A stretch of 64,000 nt of DNA from Minisyncoccia bacterium (GTDB lineage: Bacteria > Patescibacteriota > Minisyncoccia > 2-02-FULL-40-12 > IGHO2-01-FULL-4-A), in NCBI GenBank assembly GCA_050015375.1, contig JBEKBN010000006.1, forward strand, positions 454 to 64,453. The letters are read 5' to 3'. The position numbers were made by a program, and so were the translations under genes. A model generated the notes under the pieces. The model ran no database searches and had not been told where the DNA came from. It saw nothing but the letters and a program-made list of their open reading frames with translations. This document shows, one piece after another, positions 2,982 through 58,509 of the stretch (position 1 is its first letter; each line of letters begins with the position of its first letter).

Positions 2982-3269
2982 ATGGGCAGTGTTGCGGTTT
3001 TAGCGAAAATAGCGGTAGAAATCGAGCAAACGATAAAAAGCAAAGAGTCGTTTGAACAAATTTTCGGACCTGTTTTGGGAAGCGAGGAGATGATCGTCGT
3101 TGTTGGTCGGCAGGGATTGTTTGGAAGCGAACAGCTTACAAATGAAGAGATTGCTTGCGAACTCGGTCCGGGAAGACAGAGCACGGAAGTAATTCGTATT
3201 TATTTTGGTGCTCTTGAGAAAATCAAAGCGCATATGGCGTCAACTGGGCGAGTGAGGTTGTTAGAATAA
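2982..3269 (+). CDS. small protein with a sigma-70 region-4-like helix-turn-helix
   Basis: Strong SD AGGGGGAGG precedes the ATG. The C-terminus LTNEEIACELGPGRQSTEVIRIYFGALEKIK resembles the sigma-70 region 4 HTH. The location between secY and adk is unusual. Confidence 0.45.
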   Translation: MGSVAVLAKIAVEIEQTIKSKESFEQIFGPVLGSEEMIVVVGRQGLFGSEQLTNEEIACELGPGRQSTEVIRIYFGALEKIKAHMASTGRVRLLE

Positions 3270-4029: not shown

Positions 4030-4792
4030 TATCAAGTCCCCGGATGAAATTGAAATAATGGCCGAAGGCGGGAAAATCTTGGCCGAGATTTTGCAAAAAT
4101 TATCTGCCGCCGTCAAACCCGGCATCGCTACAATTGAACTTGATAAGCTCGCTCGCGAGCTTTGCTTGTCATATAAAGTCAAACCGGCGTTTTTGGGTTA
4201 CAATGATTTTCCGGCGGCGCTTTGCGTTTCGGTGAATGAGGAAGTTGTCCATGGCGTGCCCTCGGAACGGTCACTTAAGGAGGGCGACATTGTCGGACTT
4301 GATATGGGCGTTATCAATGGCGGTTTCAATACCGACAGCGCCATCACCGTGCCGGTTCTCGGAAATTTAAAATATGAAGATTGGGCGAAAAAAGATCCGA
4401 AACACGCGAAATTAATTGAGGTCACAAAACACGCACTCAATGCCGGAATAAAAAAAGCCGTTGTCGGCAATCGTATCGGCGCAATCGGTCATGAGATCCA
4501 AAAAATTGCCGAAAAGGAAAACTTTGGCGTTGTCCGAGATCTCTCCGGCCACGGCATTGGCCGGGTTTTGCACGAAGAACCGGATGTGCCTAATTTCGGC
4601 AAAACCAGCGACGGCCCTGAGCTCGCCGAGGGAATGGTCATCGCCATTGAGCCGATGATCACCACTGGTGACTGGAAAATTAAACTTGCCTCCGACCACC
4701 AGGCCTACGTCACCCAAGACGGCTCATTCTCGGCCCATTTCGAGCACACCGTGGCGGTTACTTGTAATGGTCCATGGGTATTGACAGAATAG
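4022..4792 (+). CDS. map: methionine aminopeptidase type I
   Basis: MINIKSPDEIEIM...HGIGRVLHEEP...IEPMITTG aligns with bacterial MAP. I chose the ATG at 4022; the ORF track extends to a TTG at 3998. The gene overlaps the adk stop. Confidence 0.85.
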   Translation: MINIKSPDEIEIMAEGGKILAEILQKLSAAVKPGIATIELDKLARELCLSYKVKPAFLGYNDFPAALCVSVNEEVVHGVPSERSLKEGDIVGLDMGVINGGFNTDSAITVPVLGNLKYEDWAKKDPKHAKLIEVTKHALNAGIKKAVVGNRIGAIGHEIQKIAEKENFGVVRDLSGHGIGRVLHEEPDVPNFGKTSDGPELAEGMVIAIEPMITTGDWKIKLASDHQAYVTQDGSFSAHFEHTVAVTCNGPWVLTE

Positions 4793-9015: not shown

Positions 9016-9078
9016 TCCAATTTTATCATATAGATATATTTCCACGATCGTGGGAATAGGTCTATATCCAAATTTCAA

Positions 9079-12311: not shown

Positions 12312-12875
12312 ATGTCTTGGCAAATCTGTAAGCCGAATTCTGTTCCCCCACTTTTTGAGTTGCCCCAAAAGTGGGGGAGGCGATCATTTATCTGGTCCCT
12401 CGGTTACCCTCGGGATCTAGCGTCTCTTCCCCCACTTTTTAAGTTGCCCTAAAAGTGGGGGACACGGACTTGCACCGGGCAGGGTTTAGCGCGCATCCAT
12501 GTCGCCATGGAGCGGTCCCGTTCGGGGCCTTTTCACCCGTGATCCGCTTGCGCGGACTCGGAATAGTTTCTGTGCCACTTTCCCTGAATTTTGATAAATA
12601 ACTTTTGTCTTAAGAACAAAAACTATCCATCTTATATTCGGTGGCCATTAGCCACTGCCCTGCTTACGCAATCACCAACTGCTAATCTCTAATCTCAAAT
12701 AAAACCATTGGCGATCTTAGTTAACAATTAATGATTGCGTAAGCGGTGTTCGGACTTTCCTCCCTAAAACATTTTGCTTTCGCAAAATGTTCGGGCGATC
12801 AATTCGCAAAGCGAATTGATTTAGCCCCAAATCCAATAAGAATTCGTAGAGTAATCACCCGATTTACCAGGACTT
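12312..12875 (-). ncRNA. rnpB: RNase P RNA (bacterial type A-like) with an extended helix and twin hairpin insertions
   Basis: Reverse complement carries GGGAGGAAAGUCCGAAC (P4 5'), CAGGGCAG, AGUGGCACAGAAAC, CGCGCAAGCGGAUCACGGGUGAAAAGG, CUAAACCCUGCCCGGUGCAAG and ACAGAAUUCGGCUUACAG (J/P4 3'). These align with E. coli M1 RNA. The 5' and 3' ends are approximate. Confidence 0.8.
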
Positions 12876-23630: not shown

Positions 23631-25460
23631 ATGCAAAACATCCGCAATTTTTGTATAATTGCTCACATAGACCATGGCAAAAGCACCTTAGCCGACCGGC
23701 TTTTAGAATTGACGGGCACAATTGAAAAGCGCAAAATGCACGAACAATTTCTGGACCAGATGGAATTGGAGCGTGAAAGAGGGATTACCATAAAACTCCA
23801 ACCCGTCCGCATGCAATACGGCGAATATATTTTGAATTTAATAGATACGCCGGGCCATGTGGATTTCACCTACGAAGTTTCTCGTTCGCTGGCGGCGGTG
23901 GAGGGTGCGATTTTACTTGTGGATGCCGCCAAAGGCGTTCAAGCCCAGACACTGGCCAATTTGCATTTGGCGCAAAGACAGAATTTGGTCATTATTCCGG
24001 TCATCAACAAAATTGATCTACCCAATGCCAGAGTGGCCGAAGCCGAAGAAGAAATTTCCAATTTGCTTGCCGTTGAACCGGACGAAATTATCAAGATTTC
24101 CGCCAAGACCGGTGAAGGCGTGGAGAAAGTTCTTGAAGCGGTTGTCGAAAAAATTCCCCCGCCATCTACTCACTACTCACTACCAACTACCAACTATCCT
24201 CGCGCCCTGATTTTTGATTCCGCTTTTGACGCTTACAAAGGCGTTGTCGCTTATGTCAGGATTTTTGACGGCAACTTCCGGGCCGGAGACAAAATTAAAC
24301 TTTTCGCTTCCAAAGCCGAAGCCGAGATAATCGAAGTTGGTCAGTTTAAACCCGCCTTGAGCAAAACCGATTCTATCGGCGAAGGTGAGATCGGCTATAT
24401 CGCCACCGGTTTGAAAAATCCCGGCGATGTCCGCGTTGGTGATACGGTTTTCTCTACAAACTATAAACCACAAACTACAAACTTTTCACCCCTTCCCGGC
24501 TACAAAGAACCGATGCCGGTGGTTTTCGCCAGTTTTTTTCCGGAAAAAGGGGAAGATTATGATCTGCTGAAAGACGCGCTGGGAAAACTGAAATTGACCG
24601 ATGCCTCGCTGACTTATGAACCGGAATCTTCACCAGCCCTCGGCCGGGGTTTTCGCCTTGGCTTTCTGGGTATGCTCCACACCGAGATCATCAGTGAGCG
24701 GTTGCGCCGGGAATTCAAATTGTCGCTGATAATTTCCTCGCCGTCGGTGGAATATCACATTTTGAAAAAGAACGGCCAAGAAATTCCCATCCGTTCGGCA
24801 TCAGAGATGCCCAATCCGAGTTATATTGATAAAATTTTCGAACCGACGGTTGTGCTGGAATTGTTGAGCCCATCTGAATATCTCGGTTCATTGATGAAAC
24901 TTCTTTCCGAAATGCGAAGCTCTTATCTAGCCACTGATTATTTGACCAAGGAAATCGTGATTTTAAAATACAAAGTCCCGCTGACTGAAATTGTGACCGA
25001 TTTTTATGACAAACTGAAAAGCGTCAGTTCCGGTTACGCTTCGATGAGTTATTCACCCCCACACTCATTAGATGAGTGTGGGGGCAAGCAGGATGGCTAT
25101 GAGGAATCTGATCTGGTTCGGCTGGATATTTTGGTGGCCGGGGATTTGGTTGAACCGTTTTCGAGAATGGTTCCGAGATCGCGCGTTCATGACGAAGGCA
25201 AGAGAATTGTCGAGAAGTTGAAGAAAATAATTCCGCGGCAATGGTTCGCGGTGGCGATCCAAGCGGCCATCGGCGGGAAAATAATCGCTCGGGAAACCAT
25301 CAGCGCTTTGCGAAAAGATGTTACCGGTTATCTCTACGGCGGGGATATTACCCGCAAGAAAAAATTATTGGAGAAGCAAAAGAGGGGGAAGGCGAGGATG
25401 AAAGAGGAAGGCAAGGTGAATATTCCGCAGAATGTGTTTCTGGAGATGCTGAAAAAGTAG
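23631..25460 (+). CDS. lepA: elongation factor 4 (LepA)
   Basis: IRNFCIIAHIDHGKSTLADRLL...DTPGHVDF and a C-terminus matching E. coli LepA. Contains three in-frame repeat insertions. Confidence 0.92.
   Translation: MQNIRNFCIIAHIDHGKSTLADRLLELTGTIEKRKMHEQFLDQMELERERGITIKLQPVRMQYGEYILNLIDTPGHVDFTYEVSRSLAAVEGAILLVDAAKGVQAQTLANLHLAQRQNLVIIPVINKIDLPNARVAEAEEEISNLLAVEPDEIIKISAKTGEGVEKVLEAVVEKIPPPSTHYSLPTTNYPRALIFDSAFDAYKGVVAYVRIFDGNFRAGDKIKLFASKAEAEIIEVGQFKPALSKTDSIGEGEIGYIATGLKNPGDVRVGDTVFSTNYKPQTTNFSPLPGYKEPMPVVFASFFPEKGEDYDLLKDALGKLKLTDASLTYEPESSPALGRGFRLGFLGMLHTEIISERLRREFKLSLIISSPSVEYHILKKNGQEIPIRSASEMPNPSYIDKIFEPTVVLELLSPSEYLGSLMKLLSEMRSSYLATDYLTKEIVILKYKVPLTEIVTDFYDKLKSVSSGYASMSYSPPHSLDECGGKQDGYEESDLVRLDILVAGDLVEPFSRMVPRSRVHDEGKRIVEKLKKIIPRQWFAVAIQAAIGGKIIARETISALRKDVTGYLYGGDITRKKKLLEKQKRGKARMKEEGKVNIPQNVFLEMLKK
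24166..24200. repeat. heptamer tract (CTACTCA x2, CTACCAA x2, CTATCCT) in frame inside lepA, encoding STHYSLPTTNYP
   Basis: Five 7-nt units with a CTA anchor. Absent from E. coli LepA at the equivalent PAPQGDPDAPLQ position. Confidence 0.65.
24454..24488. repeat. heptamer tract (CTACAAA/CTATAAA/CCACAAA/CTACAAA) in frame inside lepA, encoding TNYKPQTTNF
   Basis: Same unit as the tpiA tract. About 7 extra residues relative to E. coli LepA. Confidence 0.65.
25056..25084. repeat. palindromic element CCCCCACACTCA-TTAGA-TGAGTGTGGGGG (copy 2) inserted in frame in lepA, encoding SPPHSLDECGG
   Basis: Perfect 12-bp arms with a 5-nt loop. Adds about 11 residues relative to E. coli LepA between GYAS and SDLV. 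Confidence 0.75.
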
Positions 25461-27799: not shown

Positions 27800-27887
27800 G
27801 GTTTTTCCTCTTCAAGTAAGTTAAGGAACTCTTGACACATTGTATGCCATGAATTACCATATGTCAAGCACACATAGGAGGCGTGAA

Positions 27888-28820
27888 ATGCAAAAGGAAG
27901 TGGAATCTTTGACAATTAAACCGTCAGATATTGATCTATCGGTGGGTTTAGAAGGTACTTTTGGAAGTTCTGATTATGACGAAGTTGCGGAAGAGCTGGT
28001 TGAACTTGCCCAATTGCAGGGTAGTTGGAATGATTTCAGTGGAGCCAAAATACCCGAGTTTTCTCTTACCTCTCTTTATCTGGACAATGCGTTGGGGGAA
28101 AAATTTGTCATAGACAACCAAGATGGAACTTACTCATTCACTTGTGACTTCATTCGCGATTGTTACAATAAAGTCATGGAAAATAAATTTGACCGTCTAC
28201 AAAAGGAATTTCTGGATGAATTGAGTAAAACCACTCGTCTCATAACGACTTCAAAACAACCATTTGTTTTGGCTCTTATCGGCATTCCGGGTTCCGGCCG
28301 AACTACGATCGGCAGATATCTTGCTCCAAAATTGCATGCCAAATTGATTCAGGCAAATTCGGCTCGAAAAATTTTAAAAGATGCGAATTTGCCTTGGGGC
28401 GACAATGTCAGGGAGATTCTTCGGAGGGTGGGGAAAGTTGTCCTTTCCGAAGGATACAACCTTATTTTGGATGGCAACGCTCTTGAAGAAAAGGACCGGA
28501 AAAATATTGCCGAAATGGCGGGATTAAAATCCGGCGTCAAAGTTTTCTATATCCGAGTCAGAATTGGTCTGGAGAATGCCTGCCAGCGAGAGAAAGAGAA
28601 GTACAACAATCCGAAATGGATTTCGTCATTCGATGATTTTCGGGTCAGCGACGATACCGAAAAAATGGTCCAAAACGTGCGAGACAGATTTCCCGTCGAG
28701 CAAGCTCTAAAATCCGGAGACATTCCGAACTTGATCGGCGAAGTTGACAACGACGACTCGCTGGATCGGACCTACCGCCAGCTGGATGTTCTTATTTGCA
28801 AGATGAGAAATTTACGCTAG
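27888..28820 (+). CDS. P-loop NTPase/kinase-like protein (zeta-toxin/AAA_33-like) with an atypical Walker A GIPGSGRTT
   Basis: SD AGGAGG before the ATG at 27888. LALIGIPGSGRTTIGRYLA is a P-loop with Arg in place of the usual Lys. An acidic N-terminal domain of about 130 aa precedes it. Confidence 0.55.
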   Translation: MQKEVESLTIKPSDIDLSVGLEGTFGSSDYDEVAEELVELAQLQGSWNDFSGAKIPEFSLTSLYLDNALGEKFVIDNQDGTYSFTCDFIRDCYNKVMENKFDRLQKEFLDELSKTTRLITTSKQPFVLALIGIPGSGRTTIGRYLAPKLHAKLIQANSARKILKDANLPWGDNVREILRRVGKVVLSEGYNLILDGNALEEKDRKNIAEMAGLKSGVKVFYIRVRIGLENACQREKEKYNNPKWISSFDDFRVSDDTEKMVQNVRDRFPVEQALKSGDIPNLIGEVDNDDSLDRTYRQLDVLICKMRNLR

Positions 28821-30038: not shown

Positions 30039-30109
30039 GCGGGATTAGTACAGTGGCAGTACAATTGCTTCCCAAGCAATGGACGCGAGTTCGATTCTCG
30101 TATCCCGCT
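30039..30109 (+). tRNA. tRNA-Gly (anticodon CCC)
   Basis: Acceptor GCGGGAT/ATCCCGC, D-arm GTACAGTGGCAGTAC, anticodon loop TTCCCAA, T-loop TTCGATT. CCA is not encoded. Confidence 0.85.
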
Positions 30110-30269
30110 CAAAAATCAAAAAATTTTTTGATTTTTGAGCGGGTAAGCGAGCAAATTTATTGCTCGCGTCAAGATGAGAACGCCGGAGCGATGTTTCGCG
30201 AGTGATTGGCGAGCGAAACCGCGAGGCGGTGGCTAGACCGAGCCGCCGGAAGGCGGCGAGAGTCGAAGC

Positions 30270-30292
30270 CGATTCTCGTATCCCGCTCAAAA
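30270..30292 (+). repeat. 23-nt direct repeat of the tRNA-Gly 3' end (CGATTCTCGTATCCCGCTCAAAA), an att-like remnant
   Basis: Identical to 30092-30114. The two copies flank a 155-bp hairpin-rich segment. Confidence 0.6.
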
Positions 30293-31048: not shown

Positions 31049-31342
31049 TCAGTTCTTTATCTTCTCGATGATCTTGTTGGTTTCGAGGATCTTCGGCTGG
31101 GCCAATCGGTAAAAAACCGTGAGCCCCTGCCGGCGGGGAGCGATAATATTAGCGTGGCGCAGGAGCGACAAATGCTGGGACACATTGGCTTTCCGCAAAT
31201 TCAAACCCTTGATCAGATCGGCGACTGCCGTCTCGCCTTTTTTTAAGATATCCAAAATCTCCAGCCGTATCGGGTTGGCCAGGATCTTGTAGAGTTCGGC
31301 TTTTTGCTCGTATTTCTTTTTGTCTTCTTTCGAAACAGTCAT
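31049..31342 (-). CDS. ArsR/SmtB-family transcriptional regulator
   Basis: LANPIRLEILDILKKGETAVADLIKGLNLRKANVSQHLSLLRHANII is an ArsR HTH. Confidence 0.8.
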   Translation of the reverse strand: MTVSKEDKKKYEQKAELYKILANPIRLEILDILKKGETAVADLIKGLNLRKANVSQHLSLLRHANIIAPRRQGLTVFYRLAQPKILETNKIIEKIKN

Positions 31343-31473: not shown

Positions 31474-31517
31474 ATAACATGTAGATATTGACCATATGGT
31501 CAATATCTACATGTTAT
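31474..31517. promoter_or_regulatory. 44-bp perfect palindrome (ATAACATGTAGATATTGACCAT|ATGGTCAATATCTACATGTTAT), putative operator
   Basis: Perfect dyad 30 bp upstream of the PaaX-like gene, in a divergent region shared with arsR. A near-copy is at 32111-32138. Confidence 0.6.
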
Positions 31518-31546
31518 TGTTTTATAGTTTCTGTTATTATGTATTC

Positions 31547-32113
31547 ATGAAGGCGATAAGAAGAGGAACCCTAGCTTTTAAAATTTTAAAAGGCATTGGT
31601 CTAACGGGTTTGTTTTTAATAAGCATGTCGAACCCGCGTTTTGGGGTTCAGTTATTGACGGGATTTAAAGAATATAACAAAAGGGAGAAACAAAAATTCA
31701 GAGAATCGTTATATTATTTGAAAAAAAGAGGATTGGTAAAAATCATAGAAAACAGTAGCGGCGGCTTTACGGCCAAATTGTCAAAGACCGGAGAAAAAAT
31801 GTTGGAATCTATCGACATTGATTGTCTTGAATTGAAAAATAAGGAATTTGATGGAAAATGGCGCGTGGTTATCTTTGATGTTCCGGTCAGATTGAATATT
31901 AAAAGACACGCTTTTACGGAACGACTGAAAACTCTGGGTTTTATCATGGTTCAAAGAAGTGTATGGATTTGTCCGTTTAGGTGCAGAAAAGAACTGGCGA
32001 TGTTAACCCAATTTTACGAAATTGAGAAATACGTCACATATTTAGAAACATCTTTTGTGGATAACGAAGAAGCGTGGAAAAAAGAGTTTTCACTAATCAA
32101 ACTGGTGGCTTAG
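31547..32113 (+). CDS. PaaX-like regulator: N-terminal winged helix plus a C-terminal Cas2-fold domain
   Basis: SLYYLKKRGLVKIIE (wHTH), then GKWRVVIFDVPVRLNIKRHAFTERLKTLGFIMVQRSVWICPF, which resembles the Cas2/PaaX_C motif (YDV..KRR...L...G.R.Q.SV). Confidence 0.5.
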   Translation: MKAIRRGTLAFKILKGIGLTGLFLISMSNPRFGVQLLTGFKEYNKREKQKFRESLYYLKKRGLVKIIENSSGGFTAKLSKTGEKMLESIDIDCLELKNKEFDGKWRVVIFDVPVRLNIKRHAFTERLKTLGFIMVQRSVWICPFRCRKELAMLTQFYEIEKYVTYLETSFVDNEEAWKKEFSLIKLVA

Positions 32114-32138
32114 ATATTCACCATATGGTCAATATCTA
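32111..32138. promoter_or_regulatory. imperfect 28-bp palindrome (TAGATATTCACCAT|ATGGTCAATATCTA), second copy of the operator-like dyad
   Basis: One central mismatch relative to the 31474 dyad. Overlaps the stop codon of the PaaX-like gene. Confidence 0.5.
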
Positions 32139-32217
32139 CACTTGGGGGTGTTGATATTGTGAGCGGATGACATAACCATGTTTCTATAAAAAGAAACACG
32201 GTTTTATTTTCCACAAG

Positions 32218-32246
32218 TTGACGGTGAAATCCATGAACATTATAAT
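32218..32246 (+). promoter_or_regulatory. sigma-70-like promoter (TTGACG-17 nt-TATAAT) upstream of the tasA-like gene
   Basis: Near-consensus -35/-10 about 80 nt upstream of 32327. Confidence 0.5.
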
Positions 32247-32326: not shown

Positions 32327-33637
32327 GTGAAAAAAATAATTTTGAGTTTGGCAGTTATCGGCGCGGTTTCGGTCGGCGTCATCGGAGGGACACGCTCTTT
32401 TTTCAGCAATGTCGAAACCTCGACCGGCAATTCTTTCACCGCCGGCGGAATTGATCTGAAGGTCGGGAATGTTAGTTATTACAACGGCGTCGCTTCGGCC
32501 AGCAGTTCCTGGTCGGCCAAGGATTTGGCGGCGGGAGATTTATTTTTTAATTTTTCTAATTTAATGCCCGGCGATATCGGTGAAAATTTAGTTGACCTGA
32601 ATGTCAAAGGCAATGACGCCTATGCTTGCATGACTGTTGCCATTACCGGAACTTCCAAAAACGGCCAGACCGGCGACAACGCAGGCGAATTGCAAAATGA
32701 ATTACATTTCACTTTTTGGGCCGATAACGGCGACAATGTTCTTGAAAGCGATGAAGTGGGCAAAATTTTTGTGGATAATGAAACTCTGGCGCAAATTGCC
32801 AGCAGTCAGGCGAAGATCATCTTAGCTGATTCGACAAAAAATGTTTGGAATACTGCCATGGTTGCCGGTTCGATGACCAGCGGCCAGACATACCACATCG
32901 GCAAAGTATTTTGTTACGGATCGTTGACCCAAGCCCTGGCCGCGCCCGGCATAAACGATCCGACTAAAGTCAGCGGATTTAATTGTAACGGGACATCGGT
33001 GAGTGATGCTTCCCAAACCGACGGTGTTTTGGGAGATATCAGTTTCACGGCGATCCAGTCGAAGAACAACGGTTCCTTCCGATGCAATCCCGTGGCGACA
33101 GTGACGCCGACCCCGACCCCGATTGCAATCTGGAATGATAATTTCGGAATTGGAGATGATAGCAATATAGTTGACAGCTGGGCCAAAACAAATGGTAACA
33201 CCGCCAGTGTCAGCGCTTATGGTACCTATGCCAAAAAGCCAACCACGGGTGATAATTCGGAAAGCCCCGACAATGGGCGGTTTGCACTTATTGCCGGCAA
33301 AGAATGGATTTGCCATCAGGTTGACGCGACGGGCTTGATGGATTTAACTCTTAGTTATTATTGGCGGGGAGATATTGACGCCGGCGTTTTAGATAATGGA
33401 GTAGTTGAATATCTTATTAACGGCGCCTGTGATTCATTAACTGGCTGGACAACTTTGGCAAATCATCAGCTTATCAAAGATGATTCTGGTAAAACCTCTT
33501 GGAGTGCGCTCCAGACCTTGAACTTGCCGGGCGACTTAAATAATACCCAATTTTTGATTCGCTTTCGCAGCAACTCTTCATCTCAAACGAAAAGCTTTCG
33601 AATTGATAACGTGAGCATGACCGGAATTCCAAATTAA
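32327..33637 (+). CDS. TasA/camelysin-like secreted protein with a SipW-cognate signal peptide
   Basis: N-terminus MKKIILSLAVIGAVSVGVIGGTRSFFSNVETSTGNSFTAGGIDL is the TIGR04088-type SipW-cognate signal. SipW is encoded immediately downstream. Confidence 0.7.
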   Translation: MKKIILSLAVIGAVSVGVIGGTRSFFSNVETSTGNSFTAGGIDLKVGNVSYYNGVASASSSWSAKDLAAGDLFFNFSNLMPGDIGENLVDLNVKGNDAYACMTVAITGTSKNGQTGDNAGELQNELHFTFWADNGDNVLESDEVGKIFVDNETLAQIASSQAKIILADSTKNVWNTAMVAGSMTSGQTYHIGKVFCYGSLTQALAAPGINDPTKVSGFNCNGTSVSDASQTDGVLGDISFTAIQSKNNGSFRCNPVATVTPTPTPIAIWNDNFGIGDDSNIVDSWAKTNGNTASVSAYGTYAKKPTTGDNSESPDNGRFALIAGKEWICHQVDATGLMDLTLSYYWRGDIDAGVLDNGVVEYLINGACDSLTGWTTLANHQLIKDDSGKTSWSALQTLNLPGDLNNTQFLIRFRSNSSSQTKSFRIDNVSMTGIPN

Positions 33638-33666
33638 TTCACGGGTTAACTGATTTACCGGTTCAA

Positions 33667-34536
33667 ATGAAAATAATTTTCAGGATTCTTTATTATTTGT
33701 TTTTCACGGCGGTTATTGTCGTTGTTTTGGCGTTGCTGGTGTCATTATTTCCGATTTTCGGGGGATTGAAGTTTTTCATTGTTCGATCGGGCTCGATGGC
33801 ACCGGCGATCAAAACCGGAAGCGTAGTGATGGTCAAACCCGAAGCCGATTACAAAATCGGGGATATAATATCGTTCAGTTTGGATGAAAAAAATGAAATA
33901 CCCACGACTCACCGCATCAAGGAAATAAAAATCAAAAACGGAATTCAGAAATTTATCACTCAAGGCGACGCCAACAACGCGCCGGACATGGTTGAAATTG
34001 AAAAAGAAAATATTATCGGCAAAGTGATTCTGACCGTTCCTTTAGCCGGATATTTGGTTGCAGTCGCTCAAAAACCGAGCGGTTATCTGGCGCTGATATT
34101 GATTCCGGCGTTCGTGATAATCGGCGACGAAATCTCGAAGATCATCAGGGAAACGAGAAAAAAACGTCAAGAGAAAAGCCAATCAAGCAACAAATCAATC
34201 CCATTCTATATTTTTTGTTTGGGTCTGGGACTTGCCGAGCTTTTACTCCCATCAATTCGCGCAAATTCGTTTTTCACGGCGACTGAAACCGGTGGGTTGA
34301 TGATAGTTGCCGGTTCGTGGTCACACGCCAAGACATCGGGCATCGCTATCGTGGCTCAAGAACCGACTTCTGATTCCGAGATTGACGTTCAAATCGCGAG
34401 TGGCGCTTCGGGAATCGAGTCAAATAAGGATGAACTAGCCCCAGAGCCGGCGGCGCCTCCGGCGCCGCCGGCCCCCGAAATCCCGCCGGCCGAAACCACC
34501 GTGGCGAGTCCTTCCGCCGAAATCATTCATGATTAA
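33667..34536 (+). CDS. sipW: signal peptidase I, SipW/archaeal type (S26B), with a Pro/Ala-rich C-terminal extension
   Basis: FIVRSGSMAPAIKTGSVVMV (SGSMxP), catalytic His in PTTHRI, and a second TM. The C-terminus is PEPAAPPAPPAPEIPPAE. Confidence 0.8.
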   Translation: MKIIFRILYYLFFTAVIVVVLALLVSLFPIFGGLKFFIVRSGSMAPAIKTGSVVMVKPEADYKIGDIISFSLDEKNEIPTTHRIKEIKIKNGIQKFITQGDANNAPDMVEIEKENIIGKVILTVPLAGYLVAVAQKPSGYLALILIPAFVIIGDEISKIIRETRKKRQEKSQSSNKSIPFYIFCLGLGLAELLLPSIRANSFFTATETGGLMIVAGSWSHAKTSGIAIVAQEPTSDSEIDVQIASGASGIESNKDELAPEPAAPPAPPAPEIPPAETTVASPSAEIIHD

Positions 34537-35410
34537 AACAAAAGTAAAACCAATTTTGACGGCAATTATTCTGTTTTTCGTTTTTTCGACCATTTTTTTG
34601 TCCGTCGTCAGTGTTCAAGCCGCCGATTTTCAGGTTACCTTCCAAAATCATCCGCTTTTCAAAAACGCCAATTTCATTCCCGGCGATTCGATCACTCGTT
34701 GGATCAAGGTCGTCAACAACAGCGGCCAAAATCAAACCGTCTTGATAAAAAGCGACAATGCCAGCGACCCCAATCACATGGACGGCGCAATGAATCTGAC
34801 CATCAAACAAGGGACCGCCACGCTTTATCAGAATTCTTTCGCTGATTTTTTGAGCGGGGACTTGATCGCTCTTTCTGAACTTGATAGCGGAAAAAGCGCT
34901 CAATATAATCTGACGGTTACATTCGATTTGTCCGCTGATGATCTTTATCAAAACAAGACGCTTGGTTTTAATATTCTTGTCGGTTTTGAACCGACCGGCT
35001 ACGAACAAAGCGATACCGGCACAACTTTTCTAACTGACAATCCCGATAATAAAGTCGAGGTTGTAACAATGACGCCGACGCCTTCGATAATTTCGTCGTC
35101 GCCGACGCCGACTCCGTCGGCGTCGGCGACCCCATCTCCCCGGCTAAAACCCAGCGTGAGTCCAATTTTACTTCGATCATCGCCAGCGCCCGTAATCGTT
35201 CACAATATTTCTTCCGCTACCACGTTATCCGCCAATTCACTTGCAACCCCGAACCTCCCGCCGTCTCTGACGACCGCCAATCCCGTCCGCCAACCCCAAC
35301 TCGCCCTCATTCTCGGCGTTTCCCCGACCCGCTGGCTGATCTATATTTTCATTTCCCTATTTGTCGGTATCGTTTCTTATGTAATTTCAAAAAAGTGGTT
35401 TAAAAATTAA
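34529..35410 (+). CDS. secreted surface protein with a Pro/Thr/Ser linker and a C-terminal TM anchor
   Basis: Signal peptide, a beta-rich domain, a PTPS-rich linker and the C-terminal anchor IYIFISLFVGIVSYVISKKWFKN. The anchor-coding segment is duplicated at 36193-36262. Confidence 0.5.
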   Translation: MIKTKVKPILTAIILFFVFSTIFLSVVSVQAADFQVTFQNHPLFKNANFIPGDSITRWIKVVNNSGQNQTVLIKSDNASDPNHMDGAMNLTIKQGTATLYQNSFADFLSGDLIALSELDSGKSAQYNLTVTFDLSADDLYQNKTLGFNILVGFEPTGYEQSDTGTTFLTDNPDNKVEVVTMTPTPSIISSSPTPTPSASATPSPRLKPSVSPILLRSSPAPVIVHNISSATTLSANSLATPNLPPSLTTANPVRQPQLALILGVSPTRWLIYIFISLFVGIVSYVISKKWFKN

Positions 35411-35411
35411 A
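35343..35411 (+). repeat. direct repeat copy 1 (about 70 bp, C-terminal anchor-coding segment)
   Basis: About 92% identical to 36193-36262. Together they bracket the PEP-CTERM gene cassette. Confidence 0.7.
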
Positions 35412-35517
35412 GATCGGAAACGGCGCGCGGATTTGCTTTATTATTTATCCTATGCTAGAGTGTTCGTAAGCTCATTAAGTTTGGCATCGAACCTTCACAC
35501 GAGGAGAGGAGAAGTTT

Positions 35518-36135
35518 ATGAAAAGAATGACCGTTTTGGGTTTGTTTCTGGTGGTTTTCCTGACCGTGTTTGCCGTATCGGTGAACGCCGAGACATTGGC
35601 ATTTAACGGCTATCCGTGGGGACTGAACGACGGTTCCTTCTATGTTGGAGACGCCGCCGGCACGCTGGGGACGAATAATATTGTAATGTGGTGCGTGGAT
35701 CCACTTCACGAAATCACGTTGAGTCCCTGGGATGTTACTGTCGTGTCTCTGGCAAATCCAATCGGACTAAACGGATTGCCCTTGACTGTGGCCGACTACG
35801 AGGCAATGTTTCTCCTCGGTCAGCAGTTCACGAATACAAACCAAACGATAGATGTGGCGCTACAGCACGAGATCTGGTCGTTCGCTAACCCGTCGGCATA
35901 TCCTCTTACGGTAGCCGAGCAAGGGCAGAAAAACGACGCCATAGCAGCGATCGGCGGTTATAACTTTTTGGGCGCTGACGTTCTTGTTCCCCAGGGAGAT
36001 CCTAGCGGGTGGACAGGGCAGGTTTTCGAGACCGGCACCGCGACTATGGTCCCTGAGCCCGCGTTCATCTTACTGTTAGGCCTGGGCCTAATGGGTGTCG
36101 TTCTGGCGGCCGGAGGAAGAAAACAGAAAAACTAA
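35518..36135 (+). CDS. secreted protein with a C-terminal PEP-CTERM sorting signal
   Basis: SD GAGGAGAGGAG. Signal peptide. The C-terminus VPEPAFILLLGLGLMGVVLAAGGRKQKN is a canonical PEP motif plus TM plus basic tail. No exosortase gene is in the window. Confidence 0.65.
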   Translation: MKRMTVLGLFLVVFLTVFAVSVNAETLAFNGYPWGLNDGSFYVGDAAGTLGTNNIVMWCVDPLHEITLSPWDVTVVSLANPIGLNGLPLTVADYEAMFLLGQQFTNTNQTIDVALQHEIWSFANPSAYPLTVAEQGQKNDAIAAIGGYNFLGADVLVPQGDPSGWTGQVFETGTATMVPEPAFILLLGLGLMGVVLAAGGRKQKN

Positions 36136-36192
36136 CCACCTTTTCGTATACGGTGGCCATTCCTTGAAGGAACGGCCACCGATTTTTTTTAT

Positions 36193-36262
36193 TATATTTT
36201 TAATTTCCCTGTTTGTCGGTATCGTTTCTTATATAATTTCAAAAAAGTGGTTTAAGGATTAA
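36193..36262 (+). repeat. direct repeat copy 2 (orphan anchor-coding remnant, LFLISLFVGIVSYIISKKWFKD*)
   Basis: Noncoding copy of the 35343-35411 segment that still reads as an in-frame anchor peptide. Confidence 0.7.
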
Positions 36263-36412
36263 ATTGTCAGCAGTGGATAACCTATTGCATTGTTTCGGTA
36301 TCTGATATATAAGGTAGATAGTCACGTTTTTTTCAACTTTCTTAAATCGTCTCACCGGATGGCGCCGACTCCGAACTCTTGTTAGCCGCCAGCACTGCCC
36401 GATGGACCTGTT

Positions 36413-55256: not shown

Positions 55257-56543
55257 ATGACCGTTTCTGATATAATTAAACAAATGGAGGAAAAAGAAAA
55301 TGAATTGAAATTCCCCAACGGGTTTTTGTGGGGGACGGCCACGTCAAGCTATCAGATAGAAGGTGGAATAAATAATTGCGACTGGGCCCAAGCGAATCGC
55401 GGTCCCTCGACAAGTTCAGGACATCAGATTCCTGATGCTGGGCGCGCTTGCGATAGTTACAATAAATACGAGGAGGATTTTGATATTGCCAAATCGCTTG
55501 GCCAGAACGCCCACCGTTTCTCTATAGAATGGGCGCGGATCGAGCCGGAAGAGGGAAAATTCGACGAGAAAGAAATCGAGCATTATAAAAAAGTGCTGGA
55601 CGCCTTGCGAACTCGCCCCCACACTCAAGATTTGAGTGTGGGGGGAACGGGATTGGAACCATTCGTGACCCTTTGGCATTTCACGCTTCCGGTTTGGTTC
55701 GCGAAAATGGGCGGTTTCGAAAATCCGAAATCACCGGAAATATTTTCCCGATATTGCGAATTTGTCGTTGGCAAAATGGGGGATAGAGTTCACCCTGTTA
55801 AATCCGGCGAAGCCGGTGCCGCGGAGCGGCAATTTAACAGGGTAAAATTCTGGGTAACTATAAACGAACCGATGGTTTATGCCTCGAATGGTTACCGAAA
55901 AGGTCAATGGCCGCCGTTTGAAAAAAATATTTTCAGGTTCATGAAGGTTATCAAAAATCTAATCATGTCGCACAATCTAGCATATGACAAAATCAAGAAC
56001 ATTGATCCTTCGGCTCAGATCGGCATCGCTAAAAATAATATAAATTTTGAGGCAAATTGGAACCCAATCAATCGCCTCTTGTCAAGCTTTCTGAATTTTT
56101 TCTGGAATCGCAGATTTTTGAATAAAATTTCACAGGATTTCATCGGTTTGAATTATTATTTCCACAAAAAGTTCGGGGATAGGGCGAAGTATCCGAAATC
56201 CGACATGGGTTGGGATATTTATCCGAAAGGAATTTATAATTTGCTGATGGAACTGAAAAAATATGGTAAACCGGTTTACATCACCGAAAACGGATTGGCG
56301 GACAAAGAAGACAAACAACGCGCCGATTTCATCCGTGAACATTTGAAATGGGTTTCGAGAGCGATCCGGGATGGCTCTGACTGCCGCGGATATTTTTATT
56401 GGTCGCTTCTGGATAATTTTGAGTGGGCGGAGGGTTACAAACAAAAATTCGGTTTGGTGGAAATTAATTTTGAAACAATGGAAAGAAAGATCAGGAATTC
56501 AGCGTGGGAATTTGCAAAAATTTGTAAAAATAACGAAATATGA
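55257..56543 (+). CDS. glycoside hydrolase family 1 (beta-glucosidase-like) carrying two in-frame palindromic insertions
   Basis: FLWGTATSSYQIEGG, TINEP (acid/base) and ITENGLA (nucleophile). Carries insertions RTRPHTQDLSVGG and HPVKSGEAGAAERQFNRV relative to canonical GH1. Confidence 0.88.
   Translation: MTVSDIIKQMEEKENELKFPNGFLWGTATSSYQIEGGINNCDWAQANRGPSTSSGHQIPDAGRACDSYNKYEEDFDIAKSLGQNAHRFSIEWARIEPEEGKFDEKEIEHYKKVLDALRTRPHTQDLSVGGTGLEPFVTLWHFTLPVWFAKMGGFENPKSPEIFSRYCEFVVGKMGDRVHPVKSGEAGAAERQFNRVKFWVTINEPMVYASNGYRKGQWPPFEKNIFRFMKVIKNLIMSHNLAYDKIKNIDPSAQIGIAKNNINFEANWNPINRLLSSFLNFFWNRRFLNKISQDFIGLNYYFHKKFGDRAKYPKSDMGWDIYPKGIYNLLMELKKYGKPVYITENGLADKEDKQRADFIREHLKWVSRAIRDGSDCRGYFYWSLLDNFEWAEGYKQKFGLVEINFETMERKIRNSAWEFAKICKNNEI
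55616..55644. repeat. palindromic element CCCCCACACTCA-AGATT-TGAGTGTGGGGG (copy 3), in frame in GH1
   Basis: Perfect 12-bp arms. Encodes RPHTQDLSVGG, inserted before the conserved GxEPFVTLxHxxLP block. Confidence 0.75.
55793..55842. repeat. second, distinct GC-rich palindromic insertion (CCCTGTTAAAT-28 nt-ATTTAACAGGG), in frame in GH1
   Basis: 11-bp perfect arms. The loop itself holds two hairpins (CCGGC-GAA-GCCGG and GCCGC-GGA-GCGGC). Encodes about 16 extra residues between GDRV and KFWVTINEP. Confidence 0.65.
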
Positions 56544-57427: not shown

Positions 57428-58509
57428 AGAAGCACAAAAAATATTTTTCAATTCCCATTATCCTTTTCTTGATCCTTTTGGTTTTAACCTTGGCTTGGAA
57501 TTTGCTTTCCATCAGGCCGGTTCCCGAAAAAGTAAATTACGGCGTTTCGTTCAGCGTTTTTCATTCCAACGAACTCAATCTGGATTGGAAAAAAACATAT
57601 TTGGCGATCTTAGACGATCTTAAGGTCAGGAACTTGCGGCTTACCGCTCATTGGCCGCTGACCGAGCCGGCCGACGGCAAATACGATTTCTCAGAATTGG
57701 ATTTTCAGATAAACGAAGCCGATAAACGCGGCGCGACCTATATTCTGGCCGTCGGCCGGCGCCTGCCCGGCTGGCCGGAATGCCATGTGCCGGATTGGGT
57801 TATGAATCAAGAATCACAAATCACGAATCAAGGTGAAAAAACTGATTTTGAGAACCAAAAGTTATTGGAATATATTCAGACGACCGTTGAGCGTTACAAA
57901 AATTCCCCCGGTCTGAAATATTGGCAAGTCGAGAATGAACCGTTCCTAGGATTTTTCGGCCGTTCGAGCTGCCAATTGACCGACGAGAATTTTTTCAAAC
58001 AGGAGATCGCTCTTGTCCATAAACTCGATCCGACCCATCCGGTTCTGGCGACCGACAGCGGCGAGTTCGGCTATTGGTATCAGGCCTACCGCGACGGTGA
58101 TGTTTTCGGCACCTCCTTGTATCTGTATGTTTGGTGGCGGGCGCTTGGCATCGGCCCCTTGCGTTATCCCATCGGGCCGTCGTTTTTCCGAGTGAAGCAA
58201 AATGTGGTTGATTTTATCGGTTGTGTCTTGGGCGATTCACCCTCACACTCAATTTTTGAGTGTGAGGGCAAGCCGACAATTCTCATTGAACTGGAAGCCG
58301 AGCCCTGGCTTTTAACACCGATCGTTGACGCGCCGATGGCGACTCTCCTTGACCGGATGGGGATTGATAAATTCGAAACCATGATCCAAACCGCCAAAGA
58401 AGCCGGTTTTGGCGACCAATATCTCTGGGGCGCCGAGTGGTGGTATTGGATGGAACAAAATGGCCATCCGGAATTTTGGCAGGCGGCGAAGCAACTTTTT
58501 AACCAATAA
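57424..58509 (+). CDS. glycoside hydrolase, clan GH-A (GH5/GH113-like)
   Basis: Signal/TM N-terminus, then YWQVENEPF (acid/base NEP) and LIELEAEPW (nucleophile Glu). The family is not resolved. Confidence 0.55.
   Translation: MKKHKKYFSIPIILFLILLVLTLAWNLLSIRPVPEKVNYGVSFSVFHSNELNLDWKKTYLAILDDLKVRNLRLTAHWPLTEPADGKYDFSELDFQINEADKRGATYILAVGRRLPGWPECHVPDWVMNQESQITNQGEKTDFENQKLLEYIQTTVERYKNSPGLKYWQVENEPFLGFFGRSSCQLTDENFFKQEIALVHKLDPTHPVLATDSGEFGYWYQAYRDGDVFGTSLYLYVWWRALGIGPLRYPIGPSFFRVKQNVVDFIGCVLGDSPSHSIFECEGKPTILIELEAEPWLLTPIVDAPMATLLDRMGIDKFETMIQTAKEAGFGDQYLWGAEWWYWMEQNGHPEFWQAAKQLFNQ
58240..58268. repeat. palindromic element variant CCCTCACACTCA-ATTTT-TGAGTGTGAGGG (copy 4), in frame in the GH-A hydrolase gene
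   Basis: Both arms carry a compensatory change (C to T paired with G to A), so pairing is preserved. Encodes SPSHSIFECEGKP. Confidence 0.75.

Follow-up and report, generated by a model that had tools for sequence, protein, structure and literature searches.

A regulator gene between two copies of a palindrome

The stretch of DNA analyzed here (the window) comprises 64,000 nucleotides of contig JBEKBN010000006.1 from a Minisyncoccia bacterium of the Patescibacteria, and it carries a gene for a 188-residue winged-helix protein, here called mini-PaaX, that is flanked by two copies of a palindrome. A preliminary description of the sequence had placed a perfect 44-bp dyad 30 bp upstream of this gene and a near-copy over its stop codon. 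The upstream site (U) is indeed a perfect 44-bp palindrome, and the gap between its end and the ATG at 31547 comes to 29 bp; alignment with homologs favored this start over another in-frame ATG within the palindrome, at 31496. The downstream site (D) does overlap the stop codon, with the TAG of the 188-residue open reading frame (ORF) forming its initial three bases, but only 30 nt are shared between the copies rather than 40-44 bp. Within these 30 nt, 29 bases are identical to positions 31482-31511 of U. The shared part covers the core, spacers and inner arms of the site, and the position of D's outer left arm is occupied by coding sequence.

When the window was searched with a 28-mer, allowing up to three mismatches, only U and D were found, with 0 matches expected from 100 shuffles, and a pattern fixing the core and inner arms alone again returned just these two. 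Together, the gene and its two sites are a conserved, self-contained regulatory module of which we found no description: in the literature searched, no paper treats PaaX together with Cas2 or with Patescibacteria, and none reports winged-helix regulators with a Cas2-like domain. To our knowledge, almost no transcription factors have been characterized in Patescibacteria (the candidate phyla radiation, CPR), whose genomes are tiny. The features of the locus are collected in Table 1.

Table 1. Positions of the module and its context in the window, with examples of the trmD-rpoB slot in other contigs (a dot marks a feature without strand)
Feature	Position	Strand	Sequence or remark
Upstream site U, perfect palindrome (22+22)	31474-31517	.	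ATAACATGTAGATATTGACCAT followed by ATGGTCAATATCTACATGTTAT
U core, 8 bp by family layout	31492-31499		CCATATGG
U left arm by family layout	31478-31486		CATGTAGAT
U right arm by family layout	31505-31513		ATCTACATG
Candidate extended -10 box	31532-31540	+	TGTTATTAT; 6 nt before ATG; sequence reading and scripted score
mini-PaaX gene, 188 aa	31547-32113	+	winged helix, residues ~9-92; Cas2-like ferredoxin fold, residues ~100-170
Downstream site D	32111-32140	.	TAGATATTCACCATATGGTCAATATCTACA; 30-nt copy of U with one mismatch
Candidate intrinsic terminator of the regulator gene	32174-32211	+	predicted; hairpin 32174-32203, then TTTATTTT tract
Context: strong sigma-70-like promoter outside the module	32218-32246	+	TTGACG-17-TATAAT; serves SipW-substrate/SipW operon
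Context: ArsR/SmtB gene	31049-31342	-	132 bp from U
trmD-rpoB slot, locus L093	5784-6399
trmD-rpoB slot, locus L094	5715-6392
trmD-rpoB slot, locus L103	4327-5950

A two-domain relative of PaaX with a Cas2 signature

The preliminary description had paired a winged helix with a segment resembling the C-terminal domain of PaaX and Cas2. The pairing held up, with the correction that the second domain is the middle domain of PaaX and not PaaX_C. Residues 99-175 matched PF20803 (PaaX_M, "PaaX central Cas2-like domain") with an E-value of 4.7e-20 and 71.9 bits against a cut-off of 24. The protein stops at residue 188 and has no Pfam match to PaaX_C (PF08223); this domain is present only in the rarer, longer relatives P0007, P0045 and P0048. 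The PaaX N-terminal winged helix (PF07848) was not matched at E-values up to 1, but an AlphaFold 2 model (104 sequences, predicted local distance difference test score 88.9) nonetheless contains a winged helix, followed by a beta-alpha-beta-beta-alpha-beta domain. The PaaX equivalog model TIGR02277 aligned with residues 48-165 at 22.4 bits against a cut-off of 264.55. Two Cas2 models also scored just below their curated cut-offs (TIGR01573, 23.2 against 24.5; PF09827, 18.9 against 23.8), and nine Cas2 and Cas2_II models in PADLOC matched residues 105-147 with E-values of at most 0.0025, the best being 4.9e-6.

In a Foldseek search of the PDB, the best match to the model was E. coli PaaX (8a39, E-value 1.2e-6, 193 columns aligned). 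Next came Rv0674 and 3l09, together with many Cas2 chains that aligned with the C-terminal half. A profile search of the PDB returned weak matches to Cas2, TubR and AspA, and a search with the single protein sequence returned spurious coiled-coil matches only. Remote homology to PaaX and Cas2, on which the preliminary description had made its reading depend, is therefore found in the PaaX_M match, in weak but repeated Cas2 matches and in the structure matches.

Across the 104 sequences of the family, D102, W105, D111, R120 and S138 are invariant. Profile alignments to the Cas2 structures 3exc and 6jhz place the invariant residues on the Cas2 signature hhh[YF]D..R..L..G..Q.S, with D111 aligned to the aspartate of the YD/FD motif at the end of beta-1. 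The phenylacetyl-CoA-responsive repressor PaaX of E. coli and Pseudomonas (COG3327; PF07848, PF20803 and PF08223; PDB 8a39, 3l09, 3kfw) served as the reference for comparison. Both PaaX and the mini-PaaX model have an N-terminal winged helix ahead of a Cas2-like central domain, and both proteins have a WDGKW motif ahead of beta-1. E. coli PaaX retains this motif but has lost the Cas2 Asp, Arg and Gln, whereas the mini-PaaX family keeps the Asp, the Arg and the Gln-x-Ser. It further differs from PaaX in the missing PaaX_C (188 compared to 316 residues), in its occurrence in Patescibacteria and in the absence of paa genes near the regulator.

With Cas2 (PF09827, TIGR01573), mini-PaaX shares the ferredoxin-like fold and the signature hhh[FY]D[IV]..., R, L..LGF, Q.S[VA][WFY]. 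Unlike Cas2, it is fused to a winged helix and scores below the cut-offs, no cas1 was found among the neighboring genes scanned and no CRISPR array among the repeats of the window, and its two repeats lie ~650 bp apart and enclose its own gene. The protein is a two-domain mini-PaaX whose sequence is nearer to Cas2 than that of canonical PaaX. The PaaX architecture thus exists in a minimal two-domain form with a Cas2 signature, which makes for a tighter link between this family of metabolic repressors and Cas2 than E. coli PaaX provides.

The layout is conserved across the protein family

The family is large, with 1,509 clusters at 50% identity at E-values of at most 1e-30 and at least 529 loci in GTDB species genomes, the best 80 listed being nearly all metagenome-assembled genomes of Patescibacteria. 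A Yanofskybacteria homolog with 49% identity (locus L001) lies between ligA and gatC and has on either side a copy of a different palindrome, again centered on CATATG. The family member P0006 at L007, which follows an ATP-synthase epsilon-subunit gene (PF02823), and the longer P0007 at L008 are likewise each flanked by two copies.

The generality of this layout was assessed on 83 distinct family genes with full flanks, nearly all of them in metagenome-assembled genomes of Patescibacteria, by finding the best ungapped repeat common to the 250-bp upstream and downstream flanks, with a score of 14 or more counted as positive. A locus-specific quasi-palindrome in two copies brackets the gene in 74 of the 83 relatives. 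Among the controls, this score was reached by 4 of 266 shifted window pairs and by the flanks of 10 of 244 other genes from the same loci, and these 10 include further family-type sites and a RAYT-like gene (RAYT, a transposase associated with repetitive extragenic palindromes, REP). The latter, a RAYT-like transposase gene at L066 1924-3060 between 97-nt hairpin-bearing repeats, amounts to an internal positive control of the scan.

At 70 of 76 loci there are just two sites within ~8 kb, and extra copies occur at the remaining 6. The related loci L024 and L031 have extra perfect copies in neighboring intergenic regions. Palindromes lie at 710, 2658, 3219, 3876 and 4563 in L031 and at 3266, 3907 and 4568 in L024, in successive intergenic regions of a cluster of genes for small secreted or membrane proteins, and one of these palindromes has a variant arm. 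The sequence pattern suggests a small local regulon in some lineages, here represented by L024 and L031.

Site anatomy and co-evolution with the protein

Alignment of 67 site pairs on their centers revealed a common plan of a 9-bp arm, a 5-bp spacer, an 8-bp core, a second 5-bp spacer and a second 9-bp arm. The core (positions 1-4 on either side of the center) is at least 93% symmetric and shared between copies, the spacers (5-9) 45-70% and the 9-bp arms (10-18) 73-93%, and the flanks beyond position 19 fall to a background of ~30%. The cores of the upstream copies are most often CATATG (35), followed by CCATGG (11), CGATCG (9) and CGGCCG (3).

E. coli PaaX recognizes TGATTC-N27-GAATCA, represses its own promoter Px through exclusion of RNA polymerase and has its dimerization motif in the domain between the winged helix and the C-terminal domain (PMC9493321). 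The family sites resemble this operator in being long palindromes with widely spaced half-sites at the gene's own promoter, with a span of 36-44 bp here, and autorepression is known for PaaX. They differ from it in the additional, strongly conserved 8-bp central core and in the second copy behind the stop codon; E. coli paaX was checked and has no flanking repeat.

Within one locus, the arms of U and D are 0.80-0.85 identical whatever the divergence, whereas arm identity between the U sites of orthologs falls from 0.68 to 0.54, 0.50 and 0.37 with protein divergence. Spacer identity is 0.51 both within loci and between orthologs. Because the arms are homogenized but the spacers are not, gene conversion was ruled out as the source of the match between U and D. 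Arms matched within each locus while orthologs diverge, next to spacers free of homogenization, point to selection for one binding specificity shared by both sites.

Arm similarity follows the identity of the predicted recognition helix when the Cas2-like domain is controlled for (partial Mantel r 0.24, p 0.001), and for the cores, the strongest correlation is with the Cas2-like domain (r 0.57); phylogeny confounds both correlations. The proposal in the preliminary description that the dyads are the regulator's own sites is thus supported by the layout in 74 of 83 relatives, by the matched arms within loci, by their tracking of the recognition helix and by the placement of U, in most relatives, over the -10 box and start codon described below. 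Dozens of natural protein-site pairs with divergent specificity are now available as material for studies of recognition co-evolution and as a source of orthogonal repressor-operator parts.

The upstream copy at the promoter

A -10-like hexamer directed toward the gene is found in the gene-proximal half of U at 43 of 76 loci, compared to 10 of 76 on the opposite strand. For 50 of the 76 genes an in-frame start codon follows such a hexamer by 4-10 nt (30 of them with a TGn extension), compared to 27% of control ORFs, and in 33 of those 50 the start codon is 16-21 bp from the center of the site. Usually, then, an extended -10 box lies within U, 8-10 nt ahead of the ATG. The typical design would be a leaderless gene in which U covers the -10 box, the transcription start site and the ATG, and this position of U suggests a leaderless mRNA together with autorepression.

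At the window locus, U spans approximately -73 to -30 and, unlike at most relatives, does not include the -10 box. The candidate extended -10 box lies between U and the gene (Table 1), and its distance from the ATG implies that the predicted regulator mRNA is leaderless or nearly so. Taken with the second site, these features define a large CPR-wide family, each member of which has a predicted operator with a recognizable anatomy, a putative leaderless promoter-operator design and a conserved downstream copy.

The downstream copy belongs to the regulator gene

D keeps a tightly constrained distance from the stop codon (median ~10 bp; 60 of 76 within -14 to +30 bp), but its distance to the start of the next gene varies from -48 to 526 bp. 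The next gene is co-directional in 49 of 71 loci, matching the background rate of 72%, and convergent in the other 22. D contains a -10-like element in 14 of 76 cases on one strand and 16 of 76 on the other. Because the stop-to-D distance is tight and the distance onward variable, orientation is at background and D seldom resembles a promoter, D is part of the regulator gene and not of the next gene. The orientation of D relative to U is mostly undecidable in these near-symmetric sites and showed no link with the strand of the downstream gene.

In the window, D is followed by the candidate terminator hairpin of the regulator gene (-10.9 kcal/mol, z -3.4, equalled by 0 of 200 shuffles). With the predicted terminator located after it, D would fall within the transcription unit.

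A proposed mechanism of autorepression

The reading that we consider probable is that mini-PaaX is a PaaX-type dimeric autorepressor with an auxiliary operator acting by looping or as a roadblock; binding, dimer geometry, repression, the action at D and any signal are what we infer here. As a minimal PaaX-type repressor, the protein would bind DNA through its winged helix and dimerize through the Cas2-like domain, as PaaX does. The dimer would read the long palindrome with its winged helices on the 9-bp distal arms, whose centers are ~28 bp apart, and the 8-bp core would lie on the dyad axis, beneath the Cas2-like dimer. With U located at the gene's own promoter, usually over the extended -10 box and ending at the ATG, occupancy of U would shut the gene off and create negative autoregulation.

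D, located where non-coding sequence begins behind the stop codon, would most likely be an auxiliary operator of the same specificity. It could raise the local concentration of repressor at U via a ~650-bp loop around the whole gene, and it could also, or instead, insulate the unit from neighboring genes as a protein roadblock. With few or no other targets, the protein and its sites would be free to drift together, and such drift would account for the different specificities of even close orthologs.

Repressors with auxiliary operators and looping include LacI with O1 and O2, GalR with OE and OI, and lambda CI with OL and OR flanking the cI gene. The module resembles these in having a main operator over the promoter and a second cognate site hundreds of bp away, and lambda cI likewise lies between operator regions. 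It differs in that the second site is fixed at the gene's own stop codon across the family and in that no outward regulated promoter is evident at D. Should D turn out to work by looping or as a roadblock, it would join the few auxiliary operators that keep a conserved position throughout an entire protein family.

Several observations count against an autorepressor of this kind. At the window locus, U stands off the -10 box, with its center ~51 bp before the ATG, a position also compatible with activation or with a lack of direct occlusion, and D is only a partial site, its left outer arm having been lost to coding sequence. Looping gains no support from the U-D spacing, in which no helical-phase periodicity was detected, a measure that is uninformative at ~650 bp. 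The Cas2-signature polar residues D102, D111, R120 and S138, absent from E. coli PaaX, hint at a role beyond dimerization. The extra sites at L024 and L031 mean that the module is not always strictly self-contained. Finally, presence of the module between trmD and rpoB is patchy, in a slot common to toxin-antitoxin, restriction-modification-like and transposase genes, which an accessory or selfish module would fit equally well.

Synteny, mobility and alternative explanations

In an unlikely alternative, the module would be an accessory or selfish cassette whose palindromes would be ends for excision, integration or recombination, or else a one-gene addiction or defence module with an active Cas2-like nuclease held in check by autorepression. 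In RAYT/REP units and the terminal repeats of insertion sequences, a single gene lies between palindromic repeats that are specific to the locus and co-evolve with the gene product. The gene-between-palindromes plan resembles these, and the RAYT-like gene at L066 was caught by the same scan. Relatives of mini-PaaX also occur in unrelated contexts (next to ArsR and a SipW operon in the window, between ligA and gatC at L001, after the PF02823 gene at L007), and the Cas2 Asp, Arg and Gln-x-Ser, lost from E. coli PaaX, are retained in the family.

One large clade is located between trmD and rpoB. In a metagenome sample of trmD loci, the module was present at 19 and absent from 46, with occupied and empty junctions interleaved by TrmD similarity. 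In Nomurabacteria-like genomes (L092-L171) this slot is variable: it is empty in most contigs and in others contains a MazF/PemK-like toxin-antitoxin pair, a RAYT-like Y1 transposase, or a methyltransferase with a partner gene. Flanking accessory genes at the junction vary as well, and the sequences are too diverged for exact module boundaries.

Other findings speak against a cassette. In the protein, just the winged-helix and Cas2-like domains were identified, with no recombinase domain and, in contrast to RAYT/REP systems, neither an HUH/Y1 nor any other transposase domain. No dispersed copies of the palindrome occur in the window, and at most loci the copy number is exactly two. Orthologs with at least 80% identity share the upstream neighbor in 18 of 19 pairs, and no relatives were found in the viral contigs, phage records and plasmids searched besides distant PaaX genes on actinobacterial plasmids. 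Empty trmD-rpoB junctions mostly contain no solo palindrome. The mean identity of the PaaX-like proteins (73%) is close to that of the adjacent TrmD (71%), which fits long co-residence with losses. The module therefore looks like a long-resident yet dispensable self-contained unit in a variable slot.

At the same junction, the rpoB promoter TTGACA-N17-TAGAGT is conserved and is followed by a conserved leader, GATTCATTGATTGAGTATCGGATGCAATC (L025 ~4590-4660, L092 ~1195-1265 and other trmD-rpoB loci), which may be an uncharacterized element of the 5' untranslated region.

In a different and improbable reading, the family would be a free-standing winged-helix-Cas2 protein, and its Cas2-like dimer would itself recognize, or even cleave, the 8-bp core of the palindromic repeats around its own gene, a core that resembles a restriction site (CATATG, CCATGG, CGATCG, CGGCCG). 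If true, a protein with the Cas2 fold would recognize specific repeat sequences outside CRISPR, and the module would be an autonomous accessory element in toxin-antitoxin and restriction-modification slots rather than a conventional regulator. Such a protein would also be a living Cas2-PaaX intermediate, bearing on how Cas2-type proteins joined palindromic repeats.

We also judge it quite unlikely that the palindromes are hairpins, serving as terminators or insulators on either side of the gene and alike by duplication or gene conversion instead of protein recognition. D lies directly after the stop codon, the usual place of a terminator, and perfect palindromes fold strongly as RNA (-31.6 kcal/mol and z -7.8 for U of the window). 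The T content is slightly higher after D (4.0 per 10 nt) than after U (2.9 per 10 nt), and the extra copies at L024 and L031 lie ~30-50 bp past the stop codons of neighboring genes. However, D of the window was rejected as an intrinsic terminator: its hairpin is not formed in the minimum-free-energy structure, no U tract follows it, and a separate terminator-like hairpin comes next. The evident terminators of this genome are instead GC-rich hairpins with T runs. Conservation of the arms and core around free spacers is the pattern of a protein footprint rather than of a stem, and the lack of spacer homogenization argues against gene conversion. In addition, the locus-specific sequence co-varies with the recognition helix, and the upstream copy bears the promoter -10 box.

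An equally doubtful possibility is that D is the operator or promoter of the downstream gene, giving a local regulon of two promoters whose target in the window would be the operon for a SipW substrate and SipW. This operon is co-directional with the regulator gene, and the further copies at L024 and L031 precede genes for small secreted or membrane proteins. The idea that D is the next gene's promoter was nevertheless rejected on the orientation, distance and -10 statistics given above, and the downstream promoter in the window begins 78 bp beyond D without overlapping it.

Recognition of the dyads by another factor, such as the divergently encoded ArsR-family protein, is very improbable and was rejected: although its gene, encoded on the other strand, is close to U, ArsR does not recur as a conserved neighbor across the sampled loci, where only the PaaX-like gene constantly accompanies the palindrome pair. 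Typical ArsR operators are 12-2-12, whereas the 36-44-bp length and distal arms of the sites agree with the PaaX-type span TGATTC-N27-GAATCA. The divergent ArsR gene named in the preliminary description is thus real but no conserved feature of the module.

Other features of the window

The neighbors of the regulator in the window encode ArsR, an unknown ORF, the SipW-substrate protein, SipW, a DivIC-like protein, a HAD hydrolase and a zeta-toxin-like kinase. The last is a 326-residue ORF with an AAA_33/zeta-toxin-like kinase domain at 27840-28820, ~3 kb upstream of the regulator. The downstream operon (32327-36263) encodes a SipW-dependent signal peptide protein with a camelysin/TasA-like N-terminus, a SipW-type signal peptidase I and further secreted proteins. 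Two genes of this operon encode the same C-terminal membrane anchor within a 66-nt repeat that is 92% identical between copies (35346-35411 and 36198-36263), and a PEP-CTERM-like protein is encoded at 35518-36135.

The preliminary description had also placed the locus downstream of a tRNA with an att-like repeat. This repeat exists: the 3' end of tRNA-Gly(CCC) at 30090-30111 recurs at 30268-30289, just before tRNA-Thr(CGT), and by its sequence looks like the att-like scar of a small or decayed insertion. A tRNA-linked island holding the regulator was ruled out, as the two copies are just 178 bp apart and do not enclose the regulator, and the repeat is no conserved feature of the module.

A solo 40-bp palindrome, ATATAGATATATTTCCACGATCGTGGGAATAGGTCTATAT, was found at 9028-9067 between tpiA-like and pgk-like ORFs that were identified by inspection only. 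It follows the core-plus-distal-arm plan of the family sites, and its core is the same as that of the sites around the 255-residue PaaX-like gene at L008. The window contains no second PaaX_M gene, and this palindrome may be the target of a paralog encoded elsewhere.

Two further kinds of repeat are present. A family of GC-rich hairpins (CCCCCACACTCA...TGAGTGTGGGGG) recurs at 25053-25087, 55613-55647 and 58237-58271, and a pair of 40-nt palindromes lies 84 bp apart at 12339-12378 and 12423-12462. From their sequences, both look like terminators or REP-like elements.

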